From the UHGV virus genome UHGV-1855269: a DNA stretch of 11,275 nt; one strand, given 5' to 3'. Source of the stretch: a virus. Within the stretch, counting starts at the first letter, position 1; the number at the start of each line of letters is the position of its first letter. The notes under the pieces were generated by a model. It saw nothing but the letters and a program-made list of their open reading frames with translations, made no database searches and had not been told where the DNA came from. This document shows positions 1 to 9,729 of the stretch, one piece after another. The position numbers and the translations under genes are program-made.

Positions 1-4
1 TGTA

Positions 5-445
5 TTAAAACTCCCCGAGAACCTGGTCAATCTTGCCGCAGTCGAATACCCAGTCGACGGTTCCGCCCTCTTTAGCGTTATTGAAATCAGGCTGTTTCTG
101 GAATGCACACGAACGCGCAGTAGAAATATCACCCGATGCCGTGTTGCGAATGACGATCACGTTATTGCCCCAGGTGGCAGAGGACTGGCTTTGCGCGTTA
201 TACGCCAGAGACAGCTTTTTATTCACCGGGGAGGTTTTGAGTAGCGTCACCGTAATGGTGCCTGACTTATCGGCGTGCAGGCTGTGCATCACCTCGCCAT
301 CGGCACCGATGGTCATGGTGTTTTTGTTGCCGCCCATGGTCTGGGTGATACCTTCCTCAGAGTTCGCAGAACCCTGACCAAGATCGATAACGCCGGTCGG
401 CCCGGTGAGCGACGCGGTTACATCGAGAAAAGAATAAGTTGCCAT
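5..445 (-). CDS. Putative contractile-tail tube protein (146 aa)
   Basis: Complete ORF immediately downstream of the sheath-sized gene. AAGGAG-like RBS 6 nt before the ATG at 445. Size and Gly/Thr/Ser-rich composition fit a tube protein. Family assignment is from memory only. Confidence 0.45.
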   Translation of the reverse strand: MATYSFLDVTASLTGPTGVIDLGQGSANSEEGITQTMGGNKNTMTIGADGEVMHSLHADKSGTITVTLLKTSPVNKKLSLAYNAQSQSSATWGNNVIVIRNTASGDISTARSCAFQKQPDFNNAKEGGTVDWVFDCGKIDQVLGEF

Positions 446-455
446 TTATCGCTCC

Positions 456-1601
456 TTAGCGAACCACGTTGATCTGCACATCGGCATAATGAACTGCGCC
501 AGCCAGCTTACAGGCCACCTGGATTAACGGTGCTTTGCGCGCTTCGCGGTCGGCCTGCGCCTGTTCGGACAGCGGTTGCGCATACACGTAATAGCCTTTG
601 GTCAGCGTATCGCCGGAATTCAGCTGTCCGATAGGGCCACCATTCCACACGCCAGCAGCTACCAGACCGTTCGTGACGGACTGATCCATGGACTGTTCAA
701 CGTTGGAAAGCAGACGGGTCACACCGGCATCAGTCTGCGGAATTTTGGTGGTGCTGGTATAAAGCAGGTTATAGAGGTTGGTCTGCACATAATTCTGTAA
801 CCAGTCCAGGCCGTGGCGTTCATCAAAGAAATCGCCGTTAGCCATCACTCCCTGCTGGAGGATAGCCGTATCATTCTGGTAGTACACGAATACATTGCAG
901 TTTTTTGCATCAAGTGCCGATGCCTGGCTGACTGTCAGTGTTTCATACCCGACGCCCGGCTCCTGCTTAAACTTGAGCGTAATCGCGGTATTACTGCCAT
1001 TAAAATTAACCGTGAATGCCCGGCCAAATGCAGATAACGCAGCGTATTTATTACCCGATGAATACTGAATAAAACTGCGTGAATATCCGGCGGTTTTCAG
1101 TTTTGATGCCAAATCATCGCTGGATGCAGTCTGCAGGCATTTCTCATCGCTTGTCGTAATCGCCAGAATACGGCTTACAGAAGAGGATTCGATCGCCGCA
1201 GCCACTTTCAGCCAGTCTGCATCCGGAATATCTGCATCGTCTGCAATCCCCAGCCCATACCATGAAGTATAATCGAGCATGGCATTCACAGCCTGCTCCA
1301 GCGTCTCAGGCGTGGCCTGTTCGCTGTCTCCCTTCGTTTTCACCCAACGACCAACAAAAACCTCCTGAGGTTTCGGTGATTGAGAGAAAAACACCTGCGC
1401 AGCCTTATATTCTGGTGATTCCACGCCAAAATCTTTTCCAATATCTTCCGCGGCAGAATAACGGCGAATGCGCTCACTTACCGGAATGATTGTGGACGGG
1501 CCGAGAATGAGTAATGCACCAAAATTTCGCCCTGATGCTGCACGCGGCGACATGATCACATCAACATTAACAACGTTTGATACAGGCAAGCCCTGTGCCA
1601 T
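456..1601 (-). CDS. Putative tail sheath protein (381 aa)
   Basis: Long ORF with a GGAG RBS before the ATG at 1601. Sheath-then-tube order and small-sheath size match P2/Mu-type myophage tails. Ser/Thr/Asn/Gly-rich composition. No homology search possible. Confidence 0.45.
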
Positions 1602-1604
1602 AGC

Positions 1605-2168
1605 TTAATCTCCGAAAAAGATGACTGGTGCTTCCACCAGCGATTTAATACCGTACTCGCGCACAACCTTCCGGCGCAGACGCACCGTCATATCGTAGCG
1701 GCGGACCCATTGCTGATTAATAAGTTCAGGGAAGGGAGTCAGACCTGTGTAATCGCCAAGAGACAGCCCCAGCGCATTCAGTGCTGCATTGTTCTGCGGC
1801 ACAGATATACCGTCACGAAACCGGGACGCATACACCATCCCCGCCGGTCCATAAAACGAAGCCATACACTCAATCGTTTCATGCCGCCAGAGCTGAGAGC
1901 CATCATCAGTCTGTCTGGTGAATGCCGGACTGTCATCACCTGACCATCCGATAACCCCAAACGCACACCAGTTCGTTTCAGCCGGTAGCAGTGGCGGCTG
2001 CTCTTTCTGCCAGCGCGGGCGAACCATCCCGGCAGACAGACCGGAAACGTTACGCATCCACTGGCTTAACAGCCTGTCGAGCGCTTCGTCATAATCCGGA
2101 TCGCCACTGGTTGGTATTAACCATCCGCGCTCTGTACTGGTGTTATTGCTCAACCGGAGTTCCCCCAT
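1605..2168 (-). CDS. Hypothetical neck or tail-completion protein (187 aa from the first ATG)
   Basis: ORF packed directly upstream of the sheath gene. The ORF track starts at TTG 2171; the first ATG is at 2168. It overlaps the upstream gene by about 26 nt, suggesting coupling. Confidence 0.4.
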   Translation of the reverse strand: MGELRLSNNTSTERGWLIPTSGDPDYDEALDRLLSQWMRNVSGLSAGMVRPRWQKEQPPLLPAETNWCAFGVIGWSGDDSPAFTRQTDDGSQLWRHETIECMASFYGPAGMVYASRFRDGISVPQNNAALNALGLSLGDYTGLTPFPELINQQWVRRYDMTVRLRRKVVREYGIKSLVEAPVIFFGD

Positions 2169-2532
2169 CAAACGGCATCAACTCACAATGCGCCTGAACG
2201 AATCCGGCCCCATAAGCTGTATACGGGTCGACGAAGGTCACACGATAATCACGGCCCTGATACGTCACGATATCGGCATCACGGCCAGTCTGTCCCTGCG
2301 TCAGTCGCTCAGTCGTCACAATCAGAATTGCACCGCTGATTACCTGCCCTGCCTGCATACGGCGGTTTTCCAGAGAGCGATCAACAGTTACGACTCCGGC
2401 AAACTGCTTTTTAACTTCACTGTCGCTGCCGATCCCGTCCTCATCCACCGTTTGCACTCGGCGTGTTACCCACAAATTGAAGTCGCAAAAATCGGGGTCA
2501 AAAAGCACGTCTGTTACATCAAGAGTAGGCAT
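2143..2532 (-). CDS. Hypothetical virion structural protein (129 aa)
   Basis: ORF with a GAGGGA RBS before the ATG at 2532. It overlaps the preceding gene end by 14 nt. Position is within the neck-gene block. Confidence 0.4.
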   Translation of the reverse strand: MPTLDVTDVLFDPDFCDFNLWVTRRVQTVDEDGIGSDSEVKKQFAGVVTVDRSLENRRMQAGQVISGAILIVTTERLTQGQTGRDADIVTYQGRDYRVTFVDPYTAYGAGFVQAHCELMPFDGGTPVEQ

Positions 2533-3073
2533 CTTTATCCCTCACAACATGGGTAATGGCTCTGCGATATTGCCCGGTGTCGATTAGCGGTTTCACCAGA
2601 TCGGTTCCGGGGGACTCGCCAGCAGCGCGTCGGGCAAGCTCCGCTTTCGCCCCTTTACGCCCTCGACGCGCGCGGGCTTCAACGGTGCTGTCAGCAAGCG
2701 GCGTAAAGCCGGTAATGGTCATGTACCGCCTGACACCATTAGCGGCCAGCGTGCCAGCCTGGTTGAGGGCTCTTTCCGCACCCGCCGCATTTCCATCAAG
2801 CGCAGCCTGCGCCGCTGCTTTAAGCTGCGGCACTGTCTGTTCCTCTACCGATTTAACGCCGGGGATCAGGTGCGGGCGTGGGGGGATATTTTGCGCCGGT
2901 GAGCCGTTTTCATTGACGTAGCCGATCCCCGCATTACCAAACGGAACATCTTCACGCTCGCTGTCTTCCGAAGGGATGCCGACCAGCACTTCTTTTTTAC
3001 CGATGGATTTGAGCGCATCCAGAATGGCCTGAGCGTTATCCACCCTCGTTGTCACACCGCTTTTGAAACTCAT
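2519..3073 (-). CDS. Putative head-tail joining or tail completion protein (184 aa)
   Basis: ATG at 3073 overlaps the upstream stop (ATGA coupling). The C-terminal motif KPLIDTGQ resembles the L-x-DTG motif I associate with phage tail-completion/virion-morphogenesis proteins; this is from memory and unverified. Confidence 0.4.
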
Positions 3074-3477
3074 AGCTGGCGACCGCCCGCACCAAACATC
3101 GTGATCAGCTGATAAAATTCAGCGCCATATCGGGTGTTATTCCAGAAGCCTGCGTCAGGGTTTAGCGTCGCGCTGGTGTCATAGCTGACGCTTACCTTGT
3201 CAACGGACTTAGAGGACTGAACACCATTGGTTGAACCGCCCGGGCCGCCAACCAGCATCGCCCGGCTATCTGCCGCCCAAAGCGTCATGTAGTGCGCAAC
3301 GAACAACTCGGCAAAATACGGAAACAACTTTTTGCCGGTGACCTTTTCGCTTAGCAGCACATCGGCCAGATTCAGACGAAACTGGATTTGCGCTTCGGGA
3401 TATTTGGCAGGGTCAGCAAACTGCGGGAAGTCGCGGCGAAAATCACTTACCGCTGGCAGACTTTGATTCTTTGGCAT
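3070..3477 (-). CDS. Hypothetical head-tail connector-type protein (135 aa)
   Basis: GAGGT RBS 5 nt before the ATG at 3477. Gly-rich C-terminal half. Position is in the neck module upstream of the sheath gene. Confidence 0.4.
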
Positions 3478-3664
3478 TTTTTACCTCGTTACGCGCGTCT
3501 GTGGCTTTGCCAACGGATACTTCCGCGTGCGCACGAGTGAACCAGTGCGTGGCAACGTCTTCCTCCACTGCATGACGTCCTTTAACAAACTCGCGCCGCG
3601 AACCGTCGGGAAGCGTGAGCACAAACGGGGTATGTACGTGTATTACTGCATTATTTTTTGCCAT
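3443..3664 (-). CDS. Hypothetical small protein (73 aa)
   Basis: AAGGATG RBS before the ATG at 3664. It overlaps the next gene start by 35 nt. Confidence 0.35.
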
Positions 3665-3705
3665 CGGGTCATCCTTAATGGCCCCGCCAGGGGGCCATAT
3701 GGCTG

Positions 3706-4023
3706 TTAAATGCCATCAACGTACGAAATGGTTTCTTTGTACACTGGCTCGACTGCACCCAGCTTGCCGTAGTAGGTCGCAATCTGATACAGACCACGAT
3801 ACTGCACCGGCACGCTCTGAAGCGGAACCAGCGGGTAGCGGACGTATTTTTTATCGTTGGTGTACGCAACCATGCGATCCTTATTCCCCACACCACGGCC
3901 TTTCAGCCATTTAACCGCGCGGATATTCAGCGGAACACCGTTCTGGTGATAGCTGATGGTGTTGGTCTGAAGGTACGTCAACAGGGACTGGTTACCCGCA
4001 GATGAAACGATGATGCTGGACAA
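3706..4023 (-). CDS. Hypothetical protein, start uncertain; possibly the 3' part of a disrupted gene
   Basis: The ORF begins at TTG 4023 with no RBS. A strong RBS plus ATG sits at 4111 in another frame and hits a stop after 24 codons. See the frameshift finding. Confidence 0.3.
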   Translation of the reverse strand: MSSIIVSSAGNQSLLTYLQTNTISYHQNGVPLNIRAVKWLKGRGVGNKDRMVAYTNDKKYVRYPLVPLQSVPVQYRGLYQIATYYGKLGAVEPVYKETISYVDGI

Positions 4024-4097
4024 CAGAGCAAACTGCTCAGGTGGGATCTGCCACGCGATGCTCCACGACCTCCAGTTGAGGCCTGTAATCAGCTAAC

Positions 4098-4259
4098 TTA
4101 ACGACGCCCATGTTTCACTCCTGCTTTGGCTAGTCTGTAAACACCAACAAGGCGCTCTGCGAACGCCCTGTTATTTGCTACGGCTACCACTAATCCCTCA
4201 GGTGAATCAGGGTGTCGAATCTCTTCTTTTTCCTGGTATTTCTTACGACGTTTTGTCAT
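4098..4259 (-). CDS. Small basic hypothetical protein (53 aa, MTKRRKKYQEKEE...)
   Basis: ATG at 4259 preceded by an AGGAG RBS. It sits between cII and the structural block, where lambda would have the start of O. No recognisable similarity. Confidence 0.3.
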   Translation of the reverse strand: MTKRRKKYQEKEEIRHPDSPEGLVVAVANNRAFAERLVGVYRLAKAGVKHGRR

Positions 4260-4337
4260 AATTACTCCTGTGGATTGATCCAGTCTTTCTACATCAGGCC
4301 TCGAAGAATTCGCCGTTCTTCGGGGCTTTTTCTTTTG
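4260..4337 (+). ncRNA. oop: Candidate oop-like antisense RNA overlapping the 3' end of cII
   Basis: A plus-strand intrinsic terminator lies inside the cII 3' end, antisense to cII, as for lambda oop. The 5' end is only estimated from an 80-nt length expectation. Confidence 0.35.
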
Positions 4338-4572
4338 TCAGCATTCTGGCTACTTTCTTAGCCAGTTCCGCCAACTCCTCGTCTTCAACACCCCATTCAA
4401 GAACAGCCAGAAGCATTCCCATTTTGGGGATGAAGCTATCTTTCCATCGCGAAATTTGCGATTCATTAATCCCTAACGCGTCGGCAACCTTTCGCTGACC
4501 ACGTACAGCAATTCGATTCAGGATGTTGCTTGTAATTGCATTCGCTTTCTTGCGAGTACTTGTAAGTTGCAT
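4294..4572 (-). CDS. cII: CII-like transcriptional activator (92 aa)
   Basis: The translation aligns with lambda CII across the HTH and the conserved ESQISRWK and MLLAVLEWGV segments. Start chosen at the internal ATG 4572 with an AAGGAAA RBS. It is not identical to lambda CII. Confidence 0.85.
   Translation of the reverse strand: MQLTSTRKKANAITSNILNRIAVRGQRKVADALGINESQISRWKDSFIPKMGMLLAVLEWGVEDEELAELAKKVARMLTKEKAPKNGEFFEA
4299..4336 (+). terminator. Rho-independent terminator (10-bp stem with one mismatch, 7-nt loop, T-rich tail)
   Basis: cctcgaagaa-ttcgccg-ttcttcgggg followed by ctttttctttt. It is functional only on the plus strand, because the T-tract follows the stem only there. Confidence 0.55.
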
Positions 4573-4651
4573 ATGTAAGTATTTCCTTAGATAACAATTG
4601 ATTGAATGTATGCAAATAAATGCATACACCATAGGTGTGGTTTAATTTGAT

Positions 4652-4683
4652 GCCCTTTTTCAGGGCTGGGATGTGTAAGAGCG
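4652..4683 (-). promoter_or_regulatory. nutR: nutR site (boxA CGCTCTTA, boxB GCCCTGAAAAAGGGC)
   Basis: The reverse complement reads cgctcttacacatcccagccctgaaaaagggc. This matches the lambda nutR boxA/boxB arrangement and lies just downstream of cro. Confidence 0.8.
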
Positions 4684-4691
4684 GGAATGTC

Positions 4692-6044
<1,353 letters not shown>

Positions 6045-6094
6045 TCCCCACCTCAATCTCGCTAACCAAAAAACAAACTATTTTCCGTTTAAAA

Positions 6095-6162
6095 ACAATG
6101 GAGTTTGTTTTTCATGCCCCTTTTTACAATATTTCTTGTTTACAACATACAATCTTTCTTGT
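6095..6162 (+). promoter_or_regulatory. OL3-OL2-OL1 operators overlapping the PL promoter
   Basis: Three 14-bp ACAA-N6-TTGT sites: 6095-6108 acaatggagtttgt, 6126-6139 acaatatttcttgt, 6149-6162 acaatctttcttgt. They lie about 45 nt upstream of nutL. Exact -35/-10 hexamers not assigned. Confidence 0.8.
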
Positions 6163-6207
6163 AATTTTAAGCCATCAGCAGGACGCACTGACCACCATTG
6201 AAGGTGA

Positions 6208-6238
6208 TGCTCTTAAAAATTAAGCCCTGAAGAAGGGC
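6208..6238 (+). promoter_or_regulatory. nutL: nutL site (boxA-like TGCTCTTA, boxB GCCCTGAAGAAGGGC)
   Basis: tgctcttaaaaattaagccctgaagaagggc; the boxB hairpin matches lambda nutL. It lies about 160 nt upstream of the N start. Confidence 0.85.
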
Positions 6239-6396
6239 AGCATTCAAAGCAGAAGGCTTTGGGGTGTGTGATACGAAACGAAGCATTGGCCGGAAGTGCG
6301 AATCCGGATTAGCTGCAAATGAGCCAATCGTGGGGTGTTTTCGTTCAGGACTACGACTCACACACACCACCAAAGCTAACTGACAAGAGAATCCAG

Positions 6397-6729
6397 ATGG
6401 ATGCACAAACACGCCGCCGCGAACGTCGCGCAGAGAAACAGGCTCAATGGAAAGCAGCAAATCCCCTGTTGGTTGGGGTAAGCGCAAAACCAGTTAACCG
6501 CCCTATTCTCTCGCTGAATCGCAAACCGAAATCACGAGTAGAAAGCGCACTAAATCCGATAGACCTTACAGTGCTGGCTGAATACCACGAACAGATTGAA
6601 AGCAACCTGCAACGTATTGAGCGCAAGAATCAGCGCACATGGTACAGCAAGCCACGCAGTGAAATGGGTGTGACTTGTGTTGGTCGCCAGAAGCAACGCG
6701 GAAAATCAATTCCAGCTTATTACGATTGA
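6397..6729 (+). CDS. N: Antitermination protein N, lambda type (110 aa)
   Basis: The translation from ATG 6397 (MDAQTRRRERRAEKQAQWKAANPLLVGVSAKPVNRPILSLNRKPKSRVESALNPIDLTVLAEYH...) matches lambda N, including the arginine-rich boxB-binding motif. The C-terminus diverges. Confidence 0.9.
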   Translation: MDAQTRRRERRAEKQAQWKAANPLLVGVSAKPVNRPILSLNRKPKSRVESALNPIDLTVLAEYHEQIESNLQRIERKNQRTWYSKPRSEMGVTCVGRQKQRGKSIPAYYD

Positions 6730-6737
6730 GGTGAGCC

Positions 6738-6875
6738 ATGCTCAAGAAAGTCAAACGTCGACTTTACAAAGAAGGTAGATATTCATGCCAGTTGCCAAAA
6801 TGCGACACAACAAAATGGAGTGTCGATGATTGGTGTAACTGGATAGATAGATACGGAACTTGGTGGGATAAATAA
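6738..6875 (+). CDS. Small Cys-rich hypothetical protein (45 aa), in the slot lambda uses for ral
   Basis: ATG 6738 with a GAGGTGA RBS immediately after the N stop. Four Cys (C-x4-C, then two more) suggest a zinc-ribbon-like fold. Below the ORF-track length cut-off. Confidence 0.4.
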   Translation: MLKKVKRRLYKEGRYSCQLPKCDTTKWSVDDWCNWIDRYGTWWDK

Positions 6876-6929
6876 CAGGTAACTTAAGCATATTTACTTT
6901 CGCAGCAAACCACTTATTTGAGGTGAGAT

Positions 6930-7400
6930 ATGACAAAATCATGGAGCGTACCTTTTCCTGAATCAGAAACTGAACATGATGGAATGCCTGTTTTCTGGAG
7001 ATTCCAGGCGACAGTTGAAGAAGATGGGATAAAAATATTCGCACTTCAATATATAGCTTTTCATCAGACAGAGCATTATGCATGGTTGGTTCCTGCGCAT
7101 TGGATTGTTGATTTTAAACCAGCACCAAATCAGTGGTTACAGGAATGGAAACAAAAGAGAAATAGATATGCAATTAAGAAAGTAGCAAAAAATGCAGAAA
7201 GATCTTTTGCATTCCCAACGAAGAAACTTGCCATTGAAAGTTTATTGCGCCGGAAGAAATACCATTTAATGAGAATCAAACAAGATTTGGCTGTTGTATC
7301 AACTCTTGTTGATGGGATGAAGAATATTGATACATCAACACCAGATATTGAATATAACTTTGGACACAACCAAGAAACAGAAAATTGGGTATTTTATTAG
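6930..7400 (+). CDS. Hypothetical protein (156 aa) in an AT-rich insert
   Basis: GAGGTGAG RBS before the ATG at 6930. The local sequence is visibly more AT-rich than the flanks. No TM segments or known motifs recognised. A plus-strand terminator follows. Confidence 0.6.
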   Translation: MTKSWSVPFPESETEHDGMPVFWRFQATVEEDGIKIFALQYIAFHQTEHYAWLVPAHWIVDFKPAPNQWLQEWKQKRNRYAIKKVAKNAERSFAFPTKKLAIESLLRRKKYHLMRIKQDLAVVSTLVDGMKNIDTSTPDIEYNFGHNQETENWVFY

Positions 7401-7504
7401 TACAAATAAGCACTGTGTATTCATTCCAACGAGTGAATACACGGAGCAATGTCGCTCGTAACTAAACAGGAGCCGACTTGTTCTGATTATTGGAAATCTT
7501 CTTT

Positions 7505-7528
7505 GCCCTCCAGTGTGAGGGCCTTTTT
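7505..7528 (+). terminator. Candidate intrinsic terminator after the AT-rich insert
   Basis: gccctc-cagtgt-gagggc followed by cttttt: a 6-bp GC stem, 6-nt loop and T-run. Confidence 0.45.
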
Positions 7529-7594
7529 ATATGCATACCAATAACGCTTCACTCGAGGCGTTTTCGTTATGCAATCAAATATAAGGAGTTACCC

Positions 7595-7729
7595 ATGATG
7601 CACTTTCAGCTCGCGGGTAGCGGCGTCATGTCCGCTTTCTACCCGCACGAATCTGAATTATCACGCCGAGTTAAACAATTAATCAGAGCAGCAAAGAAAC
7701 AACTGGAGGCGTTATGCGCAATGAAATAG
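7595..7729 (+). CDS. cIII: CIII-like protein (44 aa; candidate FtsH inhibitor)
   Basis: AAGGAG RBS 6 nt before the ATG at 7595. The N-terminus MMHFQLAGSGV...ESELSRRVKQLIRAAKK resembles lambda CIII (MQYAIAGWPVAG...ESLLERITRKLRDGWK) from memory. Confidence 0.55.
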   Translation: MMHFQLAGSGVMSAFYPHESELSRRVKQLIRAAKKQLEALCAMK

Positions 7730-7866
7730 CCATCAATCACCAGATGCTTCGTGCTGCACAGAACAAAGCAGTAATAGCCAGATTTATTGGTGATTCCAAA
7801 ATGTGGCTTGAAGCAAATAAAGCGATGAAATCAGCTATCAACCTTCCGTGGTATCGCAGGAAATGA
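7714..7866 (+). CDS. kil: Kil-like host-killing protein (50 aa)
   Basis: ATG 7714 with GGAGG upstream; it overlaps the cIII stop. The segment AAQNKAVIARFIGDSKMW resembles the lambda Kil core as I recall it. Below the ORF-track cut-off. Confidence 0.45.
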   Translation: MRNEIAINHQMLRAAQNKAVIARFIGDSKMWLEANKAMKSAINLPWYRRK

Positions 7867-7941
7867 GTTTTACAGATAACTGGTCAGACGAGGAATTCAT
7901 TCGTCAGATGAAAGAATTAATCGGTAACGAAGGAGATATTC

Positions 7942-8112
7942 ATGTCACTTGCAACCACAGTGAAGGAGAGCAAGTTACAGAGACGCATGTACACGCAGCA
8001 GGCGTTAATGTATCGCCAGAAGGGAGATCGTGAAGGTGTTCGCGTATTTTTGAATGCGGCAAAGACTGAAGTATTAAATCAGCGTTATTTCCTTGGGCCA
8101 TGTCCATTCTGA
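7942..8112 (+). CDS. Small hypothetical protein (56 aa), Arf-like by position
   Basis: Strong AAGGAGA RBS 5 nt before the ATG at 7942. It sits between kil and erf, where P22 has arf. A competing ORF at 7863-8033 in another frame overlaps it. Confidence 0.4.
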   Translation: MSLATTVKESKLQRRMYTQQALMYRQKGDREGVRVFLNAAKTEVLNQRYFLGPCPF

Positions 8113-8122
8113 GAACAATCAT

Positions 8123-8728
8123 ATGAGCAAAGAATTTTACGCAAGACTGGCAGCCATTCAGGAGAATCTGAACGCGCCAAAAAATCAGTACAACTCATTC
8201 GGTAAATATAAATACAGAAGCTGCGAAGATATTCTTGAAGGCGTTAAGCCGTTACTGAATGGTCTGTTTTTATCAATCAGCGATGAAGTTGTGCTGATTG
8301 GTGATCGGTATTACGTGAAAGCCACGGCAACTATTACCGATGGCGAAAACAGTCATACAGCAACCGCTCTTGCACGAGAGGAAGAAAGCAAGAAAGGAAT
8401 GGATTCTGCACAAGTTACGGGAGCTACAAGCTCTTATGCACGCAAGTATTGCCTCAATGGTTTATTCGGCATTGATGATGCGAAAGATGCAGATACCGAC
8501 GAGCATAAACATCAGCAGAACGCAGCAGCAAAGCAATCAAAACCATCACCTACGCCTGAACAGGTTCTAAAAGCATTCACTGACGCGGCATTGCAGAAAA
8601 ACACCGTGGAAGAGCTTAAACAGGCGTTCGCCAAAGCGTGGAAGATGCTCGAAGGCACACCGGAGCAGCACAAAGCGCAGGACGTTTACAACATCAGACG
8701 AGACGAATTAGAAGGAGCGGCTGCTTAA
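8123..8728 (+). CDS. erf: Erf-family single-strand annealing protein (201 aa)
   Basis: The translation from ATG 8123 (MSKEFYARLAAIQENLNAPKNQYNSFGKYKYRSCEDILEGVKPLL...) closely matches my memory of P22 Erf. The ORF-track upstream extension is rejected. Confidence 0.75.
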   Translation: MSKEFYARLAAIQENLNAPKNQYNSFGKYKYRSCEDILEGVKPLLNGLFLSISDEVVLIGDRYYVKATATITDGENSHTATALAREEESKKGMDSAQVTGATSSYARKYCLNGLFGIDDAKDADTDEHKHQQNAAAKQSKPSPTPEQVLKAFTDAALQKNTVEELKQAFAKAWKMLEGTPEQHKAQDVYNIRRDELEGAAA

Positions 8729-9111
8729 TGGCACATTCGATTACTGTAAGACTAAACAAGCCCGCAAGAGAGTTTCAGGCCGGGGAAAATATCGGATTCA
8801 ACATCCGTGCTGGCGTTCAGTATTACGATCGCCAGACAAAAAAGAAAGAATGGACAAACTACAGCGCCGTTGTATTTGTCAAGCCGGGAGCGCAAGCGGA
8901 TTACTACCGTAGCGTTCTTGTTGAAGGTGGCATTGTGGAAATTACCGGAGAAAACATCAGGGTTGATGTTTATCAGGGGCAAAATGGTCAATCAATCACT
9001 CTTGAATTACTGAATGCAAAGATTGGATTTGCAGCTTCAGGAAATGGCCCGCAGCAGCAAAGTAGTAACCAGCAGAACACTCCTGTATACGACGATTCCA
9101 TCCCATTCTGA
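8728..9111 (+). CDS. Phage SSB-like protein with C-terminal DDSIPF tail (127 aa)
   Basis: ATG 8728 overlaps the erf stop (TAATG), with a GAAGGAG RBS. The Gln/Gly-rich linker ends in DDSIPF, the signature of the bacterial SSB acidic tip (DDDIPF). Confidence 0.6.
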   Translation: MAHSITVRLNKPAREFQAGENIGFNIRAGVQYYDRQTKKKEWTNYSAVVFVKPGAQADYYRSVLVEGGIVEITGENIRVDVYQGQNGQSITLELLNAKIGFAASGNGPQQQSSNQQNTPVYDDSIPF

Positions 9112-9134
9112 TTCAGAAAAATAAGGATTTAATC

Positions 9135-9428
9135 ATGCCAGCGCCTCTGTATGGTGCGGATGACCCGCGCCGTTGTTCCGGCAATTCCATATCGGAGGTG
9201 CTGGATAAATTCAGAAAAAACTACGACCGGATAATGTCGCTACCGCAGGAAACGAAAGAGGAAAAGGAATTTCGCCACTGTATATGGCTTGCAGAGAAAG
9301 AAGAACGCGAGCGAATTTACCAGACATCAATCCGACCATTCCGCAAAGCCACATATACCCACTTCCCTGAAATTGACCCGCGCCTGCGTAATTACCGCTC
9401 ACGCTATGGCGCTATCAGTAATGACTGA
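9135..9428 (+). CDS. Hypothetical protein (97 aa); possibly an Abc2-like anti-RecBCD factor by position
   Basis: Complete ORF downstream of erf/ssb. The functional guess rests only on gene order in P22-type recombination modules and on size. Confidence 0.35.
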   Translation: MPAPLYGADDPRRCSGNSISEVLDKFRKNYDRIMSLPQETKEEKEFRHCIWLAEKEERERIYQTSIRPFRKATYTHFPEIDPRLRNYRSRYGAISND

Positions 9429-9438
9429 GGAATTTACC

Positions 9439-9729
9439 ATGAAAACAATGAAGCTAAACATCGACCTCGGAAAATACGTTATTACCGGAACCAAACACGA
9501 TCTGATTCTTAGCGAAAGAGGAATTATCAAAGAAGGTGAGAATGCAGGGAAAGAAACACTAAGCCGTATCGGTTATTACAGCAAGTTTGAGCATCTGGTT
9601 AAAGAGTTATGCAACCGTGAAATCCTGTTATCTCAGGCGCAGACACTACAGGATATTCAGCAGCATATCGAGACTTTAGGTGTATCACTTAGCACGGCTG
9701 TTGACCAGTTCGTGGAGAGTAAATCATGA
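9439..9729 (+). CDS. Hypothetical protein (96 aa)
   Basis: ATG 9439 preceded by GAGGA at a 9-nt spacing. The in-frame ATG at 9421 lacks an RBS. No family recognised. Confidence 0.5.

Follow-up and report, generated by a model that had tools for sequence, protein, structure and literature searches.

Introduction

In bacteriophage lambda, the part of the pL operon between the antiterminator gene N and cIII holds non-essential accessory genes. The order is N–ral–tL2a–ea10–cIII, with ral in front of the tL2a terminator and ea10 past it; sieB likewise lies between N and tL2a, and P22 also carries it in this slot. SieB is a membrane protein. Phage HK97 has gene 45 alone in this slot, and Sf6 has gp36, ral, gp34 and gp33. 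Here we describe the corresponding interval of UHGV virus genome UHGV-1855269, analysed as one strand of 11,275 nucleotides (the window). Positions 6738–7528 of the window, between N and cIII, carry two small open reading frames (ORFs) on the plus strand, ORF-A (6738–6875, 45 amino acids [aa]) and ORF-B (6930–7400, 156 aa), followed by a terminator (7505–7528).

A preliminary description of the window had read this interval as a single AT-rich insert, horizontally acquired together with its terminator, and had matched neither product to anything recognisable. We find that the region is ordinary, already catalogued lambdoid mosaicism, made up of two known hypothetical genes that meet at a boundary of a familiar kind, and a backbone terminator. 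As a statement about databases, the absence of matches did not hold, since both products belong to catalogued families and are 98–100% identical to published phage proteins. ORF-A is 100% identical to the gene 36 protein of Sf6 (gp36), and ORF-B is 98.1% identical to HK97 Gp45 (AAF31125.1) and is called gp45 below. Both genes were found as first described, and the family matches given below identify them as real genes.

Results and Discussion

Two cassettes joined at a short linker

The two genes have different closest relatives on either side of a sharp joint. BLAST matches to Sf6 cover 4081–6268 (98.9% identity) and 6349–6932 (97.1%), and matches to HK97 cover 6902–9442 (96.7%, with 99.0% over 6902–7900). 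The Sf6-like and HK97-like matches overlap only in the 31 nt of 6902–6932, which indicates that gp45 was joined to ORF-A by a crossover within this linker. The linker (GCAGCAAACCACTTATTTGAGGTGAGATATG, plus strand) consists of the relic of a lambda-type N 3' end encoding SKPLI* (the asterisk marks the stop), a Shine–Dalgarno (SD) sequence, and the gp45 start codon. In Dewey and 683R2, a live N gene still ends in this sequence (…SKPLI*), with the SD and gp45 ATG behind it; HK97, Sf6, and this window have it as a relic that lies behind another gene.

The linker is present in two copies. The first (TTGAGGTGAGCCATG, 6726–6740, plus strand) contains the N stop codon, which overlaps the SD of ORF-A, and then the ORF-A start, so that N and ORF-A are separated by 8 nt. 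Together with 6918–6932 (TTGAGGTGAGATATG), it forms a direct repeat of 15 nt that is 87% identical, 192 nt apart. ORF-A is bracketed by these two stop–SD–ATG copies, and the spacer between ORF-A and gp45 contains no RNA structure (z = -0.4) and no terminator. The strong ribosome-binding sites reported for both ORFs are present: GAGGTGA, a 7-nt complement of the 16S rRNA 3' end, stands about 3 nt before each ATG.

Comparison with the donor-like phages follows the same division. Like ORF-A, Sf6 gene 36 starts 8 nt past the same N allele and has this linker behind it. What the linker ATG opens differs: in this window it is gp45, and in Sf6 it is an acidic ORF of 28 aa, after which come ral and gp34. 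HK97 gene 45 and its orthologs in Stx-converting phages encode proteins of the same length, 156 aa (98%–99% amino acid identity), and share the linker in front of the gene and the hairpin, terminator, cIII, and kil behind it. N or its relic lies directly before gp45 in HK97, Dewey, and 683R2, whereas here the ORF-A cassette stands between them. Compared at the sequence level, the presumed insert is two cassettes with separate histories, an Sf6-type ORF-A and an HK97-type gp45, and not one acquisition. We propose that a hypervariable slot of the pL operon was filled by these two independent small cassettes, and that they would have been united by recombination of an Sf6-like with an HK97-like phage inside the 31-nt portable linker. 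We are confident of this anatomy and evolutionary history.

Two side observations concern the linker copies. The N C-terminus, at 6693–6729, is the Sf6 allele (…GKSIPAYYD*). In alignment with the lambda N 3' end (…AAAATCGATTCCTCTTATCTAG), this allele looks like the result of a 1-nt insertion that shifted the frame and so placed the stop codon on the SD of the gene that follows. The acidic ORF at the linker ATG of Sf6 (MEEEFEEFEEHPQDVMEQYQDYPYDYDY, then stop; 3193–3279 of the extracted locus, just before ral) is extremely acidic and carries no annotation.

A variable slot between N and cIII

By comparison of genomes, the N-to-cIII interval is a hypervariable accessory slot, as the preliminary description had suggested, and its occupants differ among lambda, HK97, Sf6, 683R2, Dewey, and H-19B. 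Besides the arrangements named above, Dewey has gp45 with three small ORFs, 683R2 has gp45 with a TolA-like gene, H-19B has gp45 with gp17 (a P22-gp17 homolog), and Bas106 has ORF-A and gp45 with further genes. Genes of DUF2528 or the Nmad5 family are also seen in this slot in Escherichia coli prophages. HK97, Dewey, 683R2, and Bas106 share this linker and boundary on either side of gp45. Relative to lambda, the window has the same operon position and flanks, with 97.3% identity over nutL and N (6173–6653 against lambda 35583–35104, which contains the annotated Nutl at 35518–35534) and 97.5% identity over the tL2a segment and cIII leader. The occupants are non-homologous: ORF-A and gp45 stand in place of ral, and ea10 is missing.

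The conserved flank (query 7401–7594) matched 368 phage records, phages without gp45 included. Against this number, gp45 was present in 88 phage records and ORF-A in about 11 lambdoid ones, so neither gene belongs to the core of this phage type. The exact order N/ORF-A/gp45/tL2a/cIII was colinear in one complete E. coli genome, Nord1, within a lambda-immunity rexAB prophage, and at least 80% of the arrangement was covered in 27 of 5426 genomes.

The occupants of the slot could suggest that gp45 is a restriction-alleviation function that replaces Ral in the same position. Between N and the tL2a boundary, HK97, Dewey, 683R2, and this window have gp45, and lambda and Sf6 have ral, one or the other; early expression would also suit anti-restriction. 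We nevertheless regard this reading as very unlikely. The either/or pattern comprises six genomes, and cassette replacement would produce it whatever the function of gp45. The protein has no similarity to Ral, neither product matches a Ral or SieB family in Pfam at E ≤1 or an anti-restriction PHROG, and the basic character of gp45 (pI 8.7) means that it is not a DNA mimic of the Ocr/ArdA type. ORF-A is not a Ral substitute, since it coexists with ral in Sf6.

The base composition of 6738–7528 is clearly deviant, as first reported. GC content is 37.7%, compared with 48.6% for the whole window and 45.3% for the remaining pL operon up to 9800; only 0.8% of 791-bp windows are equally low, with a minimum of 37.3% in the one starting at 6701. 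The gp45 gene (GC 0.359) has the lowest GC content at third codon positions (GC3, 0.274) among 24 genes measured, and its neighbours in the pL operon (N, cIII, kil, 7848–8033, erf, and ssb) have values of 0.40–0.53. The two findings that would have spoken for a native segment, a GC content like that of the flanks and conserved core genes, were both looked for; composition deviates and the genes are not core.

These features only partly resemble morons, a concept that reportedly goes back to the comparison of the HK97 and HK022 genomes and that denotes autonomous inserted transcription units. Like a moron, ORF-A separates two genes that Dewey and 683R2 have side by side, N and gp45 with a gap of 8 nt, and it lies in a segment of deviant base composition; lambda and Sf6, for their part, have no gp45 between N and the boundary. 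Unlike morons, the cassettes have no terminator of their own, as the one after gp45 is shared backbone, and the ORF-A cassette is embedded in the predicted pL transcript and translationally linked to it. A promoter scan of low sensitivity detected no promoter belonging to the cassettes.

The terminator belongs to the backbone

The hairpin and T-run noted at 7505–7528 (plus strand) form an intrinsic terminator orthologous to lambda tL2a, GCCCTC-CAGTGT-GAGGGC with the tail CTTTTTAT. The terminator scan recovered it, with a 6-bp stem of five GC pairs and a fold of -10.7 kcal/mol. Its counterpart is annotated as a putative terminator in the HK97 record and as 'homology to phage lambda; tL2A' in that of Sf6. 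It lies within a conserved lambdoid segment (7410–7532, plus strand) that closes the variable slot and is 97.6% identical to lambda 34045–33923 and 98.3% identical to Sf6 3999–4117 (extracted locus), annotated there as 'bsq4; boundary sequence'. The following 7533–7571 matches lambda 33522–33483, and lambda has ea10 between the two matched pieces. Since the segment is conserved in lambda, Sf6, and HK97, the terminator is backbone and not cargo, and the earlier view that it was acquired with the genes must be revised. Its predicted function is termination without N and readthrough with N.

Two further hairpins flank this site. Directly after the gp45 stop, an inverted repeat at 7413–7445 (plus strand) forms a perfect 14-bp stem without a T-run, which folds at -21.7 kcal/mol (z = -4.2 against shuffles). 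The segment that contains it is about 97% conserved in lambda, Sf6, HK97, and hundreds of lambdoid phages. The hairpin may be an RNA processing or stability site or a recombination boundary, among possible roles. In the cIII leader, a second and weaker terminator-like hairpin (7543–7568, plus strand) has an 8-bp stem with four GC pairs and the tail TTCGTTAT (-9.9 kcal/mol, z = -2.6).

ORF-A, a small protein shared with T4-like phages

ORF-A encodes a basic protein (pI 9.4) with five Trp residues that belongs to the DUF5484/T4 55.4 family. It matches Pfam PF17583 (DUF5484) with 46.7 bits against a cut-off of 27 (E 2.6e-12; residues 5–42 on model positions 3–41 of 43) and phrog_1871 with E 1.4e-22 (residues 1–43 on profile positions 1–44 of 45), and so is full length relative to its family. 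We rejected a reading of ORF-A as no more than the 5' part of a longer gene like the one in Dewey, because the gene after N in Dewey is gp45. A tblastn search matched 1037 phage records, 1026 of them at less than 60% identity and mostly from T4-like phages of Escherichia, Klebsiella, Shigella, Yersinia, and Pectobacterium. The proteins of these T4-like phages are about 50% identical to ORF-A over the full length and are named 55.4 (also in RB32) or 'uncharacterized 5.1 kDa protein in Gp55-nrdG intergenic region'. The Sf6 record itself remarks that gene 36 is 'similar to phage T4 gene Orf55.4'.

In an alignment of nine sequences from T4-like, Klebsiella, Erwinia, and lambdoid phages, ten residues are invariant (K6, G13, P20, T24, W27, W32, I36, D37, G40, and W42), and ORF-A fits the DUF5484 pattern K/R-x-L-F/Y-K-x-G…P…T-x-x-W…W-I-x-x-I-D-x-x-G-x-W. 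The protein had been called Cys-rich. It does contain three cysteines in 45 aa, but these are not conserved: most homologs have Gly in place of C22 and Ile or Val in place of C33, whereas three Trp are invariant. Lambdoid versions have up to three cysteines, and these are absent from the T4-like 55.4 versions. We therefore rejected a zinc-binding peptide as a candidate.

Several homologs are missing from existing annotation. ORF-A was not called by PGAP in E. coli Nord1 (extracted locus 6430–6629), nor is it called in the phi458 and N7 records. In the temperate Erwinia phage phiEt88, an unannotated 48-aa DUF5484 homolog (extracted locus 2495–2641) sits in the early-left region between the repressor and exo/recT; the hypothetical gene P88_00440, which overlaps it on the opposite strand, is probably a miscall. 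The antisense ORFs that overlap ORF-A and gp45 in the window matched no phage family. In Bas106, from the BASEL collection, the ORF-A homolog (54 aa, extracted locus 1889–2053) has lost its own stop and runs into the relic N 3' end, terminating as …SKPLI* 8 nt before gp45.

gp45, a conserved protein of many Shiga-toxin phages

The gp45 product is a soluble protein of alpha/beta type, basic in its core and acidic at both ends. It aligns end to end with PHROG 1636, the HK97 Gp45 family (E 1.4e-111, residues 1–156 on profile positions 1–156). Shiga-toxin phages account for the majority of its 88 phage records, 50 of which are Stx1a-, Stx2-, or Stx-converting phages, and orthologs occur in the Stx-converting phages EDL933-Stx, BP-4795, Min27, phage 86 (orf57), and H-19B. 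In the H-19B record, the homolog is present but unannotated (1715–2182). We rejected an equation of gp45 with H-19B gp17, which is the separate P22-gp17 homolog. Close orthologs are restricted to Enterobacterales. Twenty of them, at 55%–85% identity, have 40 invariant columns, and gp45 is under purifying conservation. The exact protein is present on 271 public contigs and that of ORF-A on at least 998, and in all sources these exact matches are labelled as hypothetical, as prophage protein, or as Sf6 gene 36 protein.

Given the AT-rich setting, both ORFs could also be decaying remnants or chance frames in a spacer, a reading to which the shortness of ORF-A and its missing annotation in phi458, N7, and the RefSeq genome of E. 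coli Nord1 lend some colour. We find it scarcely credible. Both products span their family models end to end, the invariant residues of ORF-A are kept across phages of different genera and those of gp45 across Enterobacterales, exact copies of both are frequent on public contigs, and gp45 yields a structure model with a mean confidence (pLDDT) of 96.

The gp45 protein belongs to a much wider superfamily. A profile search of 1.84 billion representative sequences returned 86 proteins at E ≤1e-3, of which about 70 are 130–155 aa long and align at positions 19–140, with the shared core YYR…EDG[IV]…HETxCY…[KR]R[IV]xK…SRFAFxTKEEAxxxLxxRK…HLKRDL. All 73 superfamily members that were aligned were assigned to PHROGs 1636, 13631, and 25384 (function unknown), and none gave a meaningful family in Pfam. 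AlphaFold2 with this 73-sequence alignment produced a model with pLDDT 96.1 and pTM 0.83; an earlier run on 20 close orthologs was poor (pLDDT 59.8) and was discarded. The model comprises a long beta-hairpin (19–30/33–46), a strand (50–55), two short helices, another strand (83–86), and a 33-residue helix (98–130). It matched no fold in the PDB, which means that it has no solved relative and does not by itself make it a new fold. PDB searches by sequence, with single sequences and two profiles, gave chance-level matches only. In BFVD, the model matched 13 uncharacterised phage proteins at E ≤1e-3, from phages of Erwinia, Tenacibaculum, Achromobacter, Sinorhizobium, Delftia, Rhizobium, and Cellulophaga, and a relative is also present in the 74.7-kb record of Pantoea phage LIET2. 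Distant relatives are encoded among small early genes that stand in arrays, or within modules for replication and nucleotide metabolism, and no recurring partner gene was found near the seven examined.

The charge distribution of gp45 is uneven, with a net charge of +11 for residues 57–130 and acidic termini. In the model, this basic core consists of beta-sheet packed on the 33-residue helix, which suggests that it may bind nucleic acid or a host protein that handles nucleic acid. A competing reading is that gp45 acts on the phage itself, as a nucleic-acid-binding regulator of early transcription, antitermination, recombination, or the lysis–lysogeny decision. Its position would fit such a role, as gp45 always directly follows a lambda-type N 3' end, live or relic, and precedes cIII, kil, and the recombination genes; its strongly basic core sits on a sheet-plus-long-helix scaffold, and one distant relative adjoins an SNF2-type helicase gene inside a replication module. 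However, gp45 is lacking from most lambdoid phages that share N, cIII, and the recombination genes (it is found in 88 of the 368 records with the conserved flank), so that this circuitry can spare it, and in HK97 gp45 is kept beside a different type of N. No helix-turn-helix or other recognised DNA- or RNA-binding domain was found in gp45. On balance, we consider a regulator of this kind unlikely.

Early transcription and a possible host-directed role

The window represents a lambdoid early region in the orientation of pL transcription and contains operators of the 434/Sf6 type and pL. The nutL boxB (GCCCTGAAGAAGGGC) lies at 6224–6238 on the plus strand, where the homologous Sf6 site is annotated as putative nutL. 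It is followed by N (6397–6729, plus strand; Pfam N36, E 1.6e-26; phrog_271), which is of lambda type with the Sf6 C-terminal allele (…KSIPAYYD*) and is 97% identical to Sf6 gene 37. Because nutL is upstream, the ORF-A/gp45 stretch would be read by N-modified pL transcription. A scan restricted to intrinsic terminators found no plus-strand hairpin with T-run from nutL to 7505, which makes the tL2a-type site the first terminator-like site after pL. In 5900–8200, a promoter scan found no sigma-70-like site on the plus strand, although it also missed pL and so has low sensitivity, and a search of the same interval against Rfam gave no match.

In the explanation that we propose, ORF-A and gp45 would share the pL transcript with N and precede the first intrinsic terminator, so that their products would appear very early in lytic growth or induction. 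Both products may then act on a host target during lytic development, in takeover or counter-defence, and neither would be a lysogen-expressed exclusion or conversion factor. A lytic, host-directed role fits better than protection of the lysogen because both families are common outside the lambdoid phages and neither matches a defence model. About 1000 DUF5484 records are from virulent T4-like phages, inside the block of small ORFs between gene 55 and nrdG. This block also contains T4 55.2, which inhibits host topoisomerase I (PMC4396842). The likeness of 55.2 to 55.4 is one of neighbourhood only, as the two show no sequence relationship. As a whole, including the slot, the two cassettes, and the early lytic role directed at the host, this is the explanation towards which we lean; the functional class taken separately, lytic-phase and host-directed, is put forward tentatively.

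Another competing view is that ORF-A, gp45, or both protect the lysogen, as a prophage defence or superinfection-exclusion factor like sieB or rex. The presence of sieB in this slot of lambda and P22 would favour it, as would the low GC content of 6738–7528, which is typical for acquired fitness genes, and the insensitivity of the promoter scan leaves room for an internal promoter. Searches with PADLOC, Pfam, and NCBIfam models on the two proteins returned only DUF5484 as a credible match. PADLOC gave nothing for ORF-A and, for gp45, only a chance-level Cas1_II match (E 0.01, 13 bits), and Pfam showed no SieB or exclusion family at E ≤1. Neither product is markedly hydrophobic (gravy -1.2 for ORF-A and -0.58 for gp45), unlike the membrane protein SieB. 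Both families are also abundant in T4-like or diverse non-lambdoid phages, which would gain nothing from protecting a lysogen, and both genes are tightly coupled to N within the predicted pL transcript. We judge lysogen protection by these genes quite unlikely.

A better candidate for lysogen-expressed exclusion or conversion than either ORF-A or gp45 is the gene at 5640–6044 (plus strand), which follows the repressor in the position of lambda rexAB. This homolog of Sf6 gene 38 encodes a 134-aa protein of phrog_2651 (function unknown) whose N-terminus resembles a signal peptide.

A literature search on HK97 gp45, DUF5484, the PHROG identifiers, the early genes of H-19B, and T4 55.4 found no functional data, and the main text of a published accessory-gene screen (PMC12373910) does not mention the HK97 or Sf6 genes.

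Other features of the window

Further lambdoid genes lie on both sides of the slot. A LexA-type repressor (5011–5643) precedes the Sf6 gene 38 homolog. To the right of the slot, cIII (7595–7729, plus strand; Pfam PF08134, E 2e-30) is of the HK022/HK97 type and is homologously placed in HK97, and it is followed by kil (7714–7866) and by recombination genes of the erf/ssb type.

The left part of the window is of a different type. At 4045–4080, there is an abrupt junction, with an Sf6-type immunity region (cII side) to its right and myovirus-type structural genes to its left (1–4023, minus strand). The latter include a tail tube-like gene (5–445, minus strand), a tail sheath gene (456–1601, minus strand; phrog_205, E 1e-133), and an ORF at 3706–4023 (minus strand) whose match to a major head protein is confined to the C-terminal third (profile positions 222–321 of 321). 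Temperate E. coli myophages (vB_EcoM-606R2 and others) match positions 1–4051 at 92% identity. The window lacks the O/P replication genes that a lambdoid phage would be expected to have after cII. The two halves were contiguous in no complete E. coli genome. The junction points to a rearranged or defective hybrid prophage, or to a misassembly.

Implications

As a genomic feature, the interval adds little, since the annotation of HK97 and Sf6 already covers its genes, the variable slot, and the 'boundary sequences', and identical proteins occur in hundreds of prophage contigs from E. coli and Shigella. Its interest lies in two very common and functionally uncharacterised genes, above all gp45, which combines a presence in many Stx phage records with an apparently immediate-early position and a confident model without a solved relative. 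ORF-A forms a link between the T4-like and the lambdoid gene pool. For screens of anti-defence or host-takeover activity, the two genes are inexpensive and clearly defined targets, and they are carried by tractable model phages: gp45 by HK97, Bas106, and Dewey (the latter two from the BASEL collection), and the ORF-A homolog by Bas106.

More speculatively, the gp45 family (PHROGs 1636, 13631, and 25384, with at least 86 representative clusters) could be an unrecognised, widespread group of early effectors that disable a host protein involved in nucleic-acid handling or immunity, with ORF-A as a second such effector, a possibility that we put forward with considerable doubt. If this were true, lambdoid phages would make gp45 together with N before any terminator is reached, and ORF-A would be an effector common to virulent T4-like and temperate lambdoid phages.

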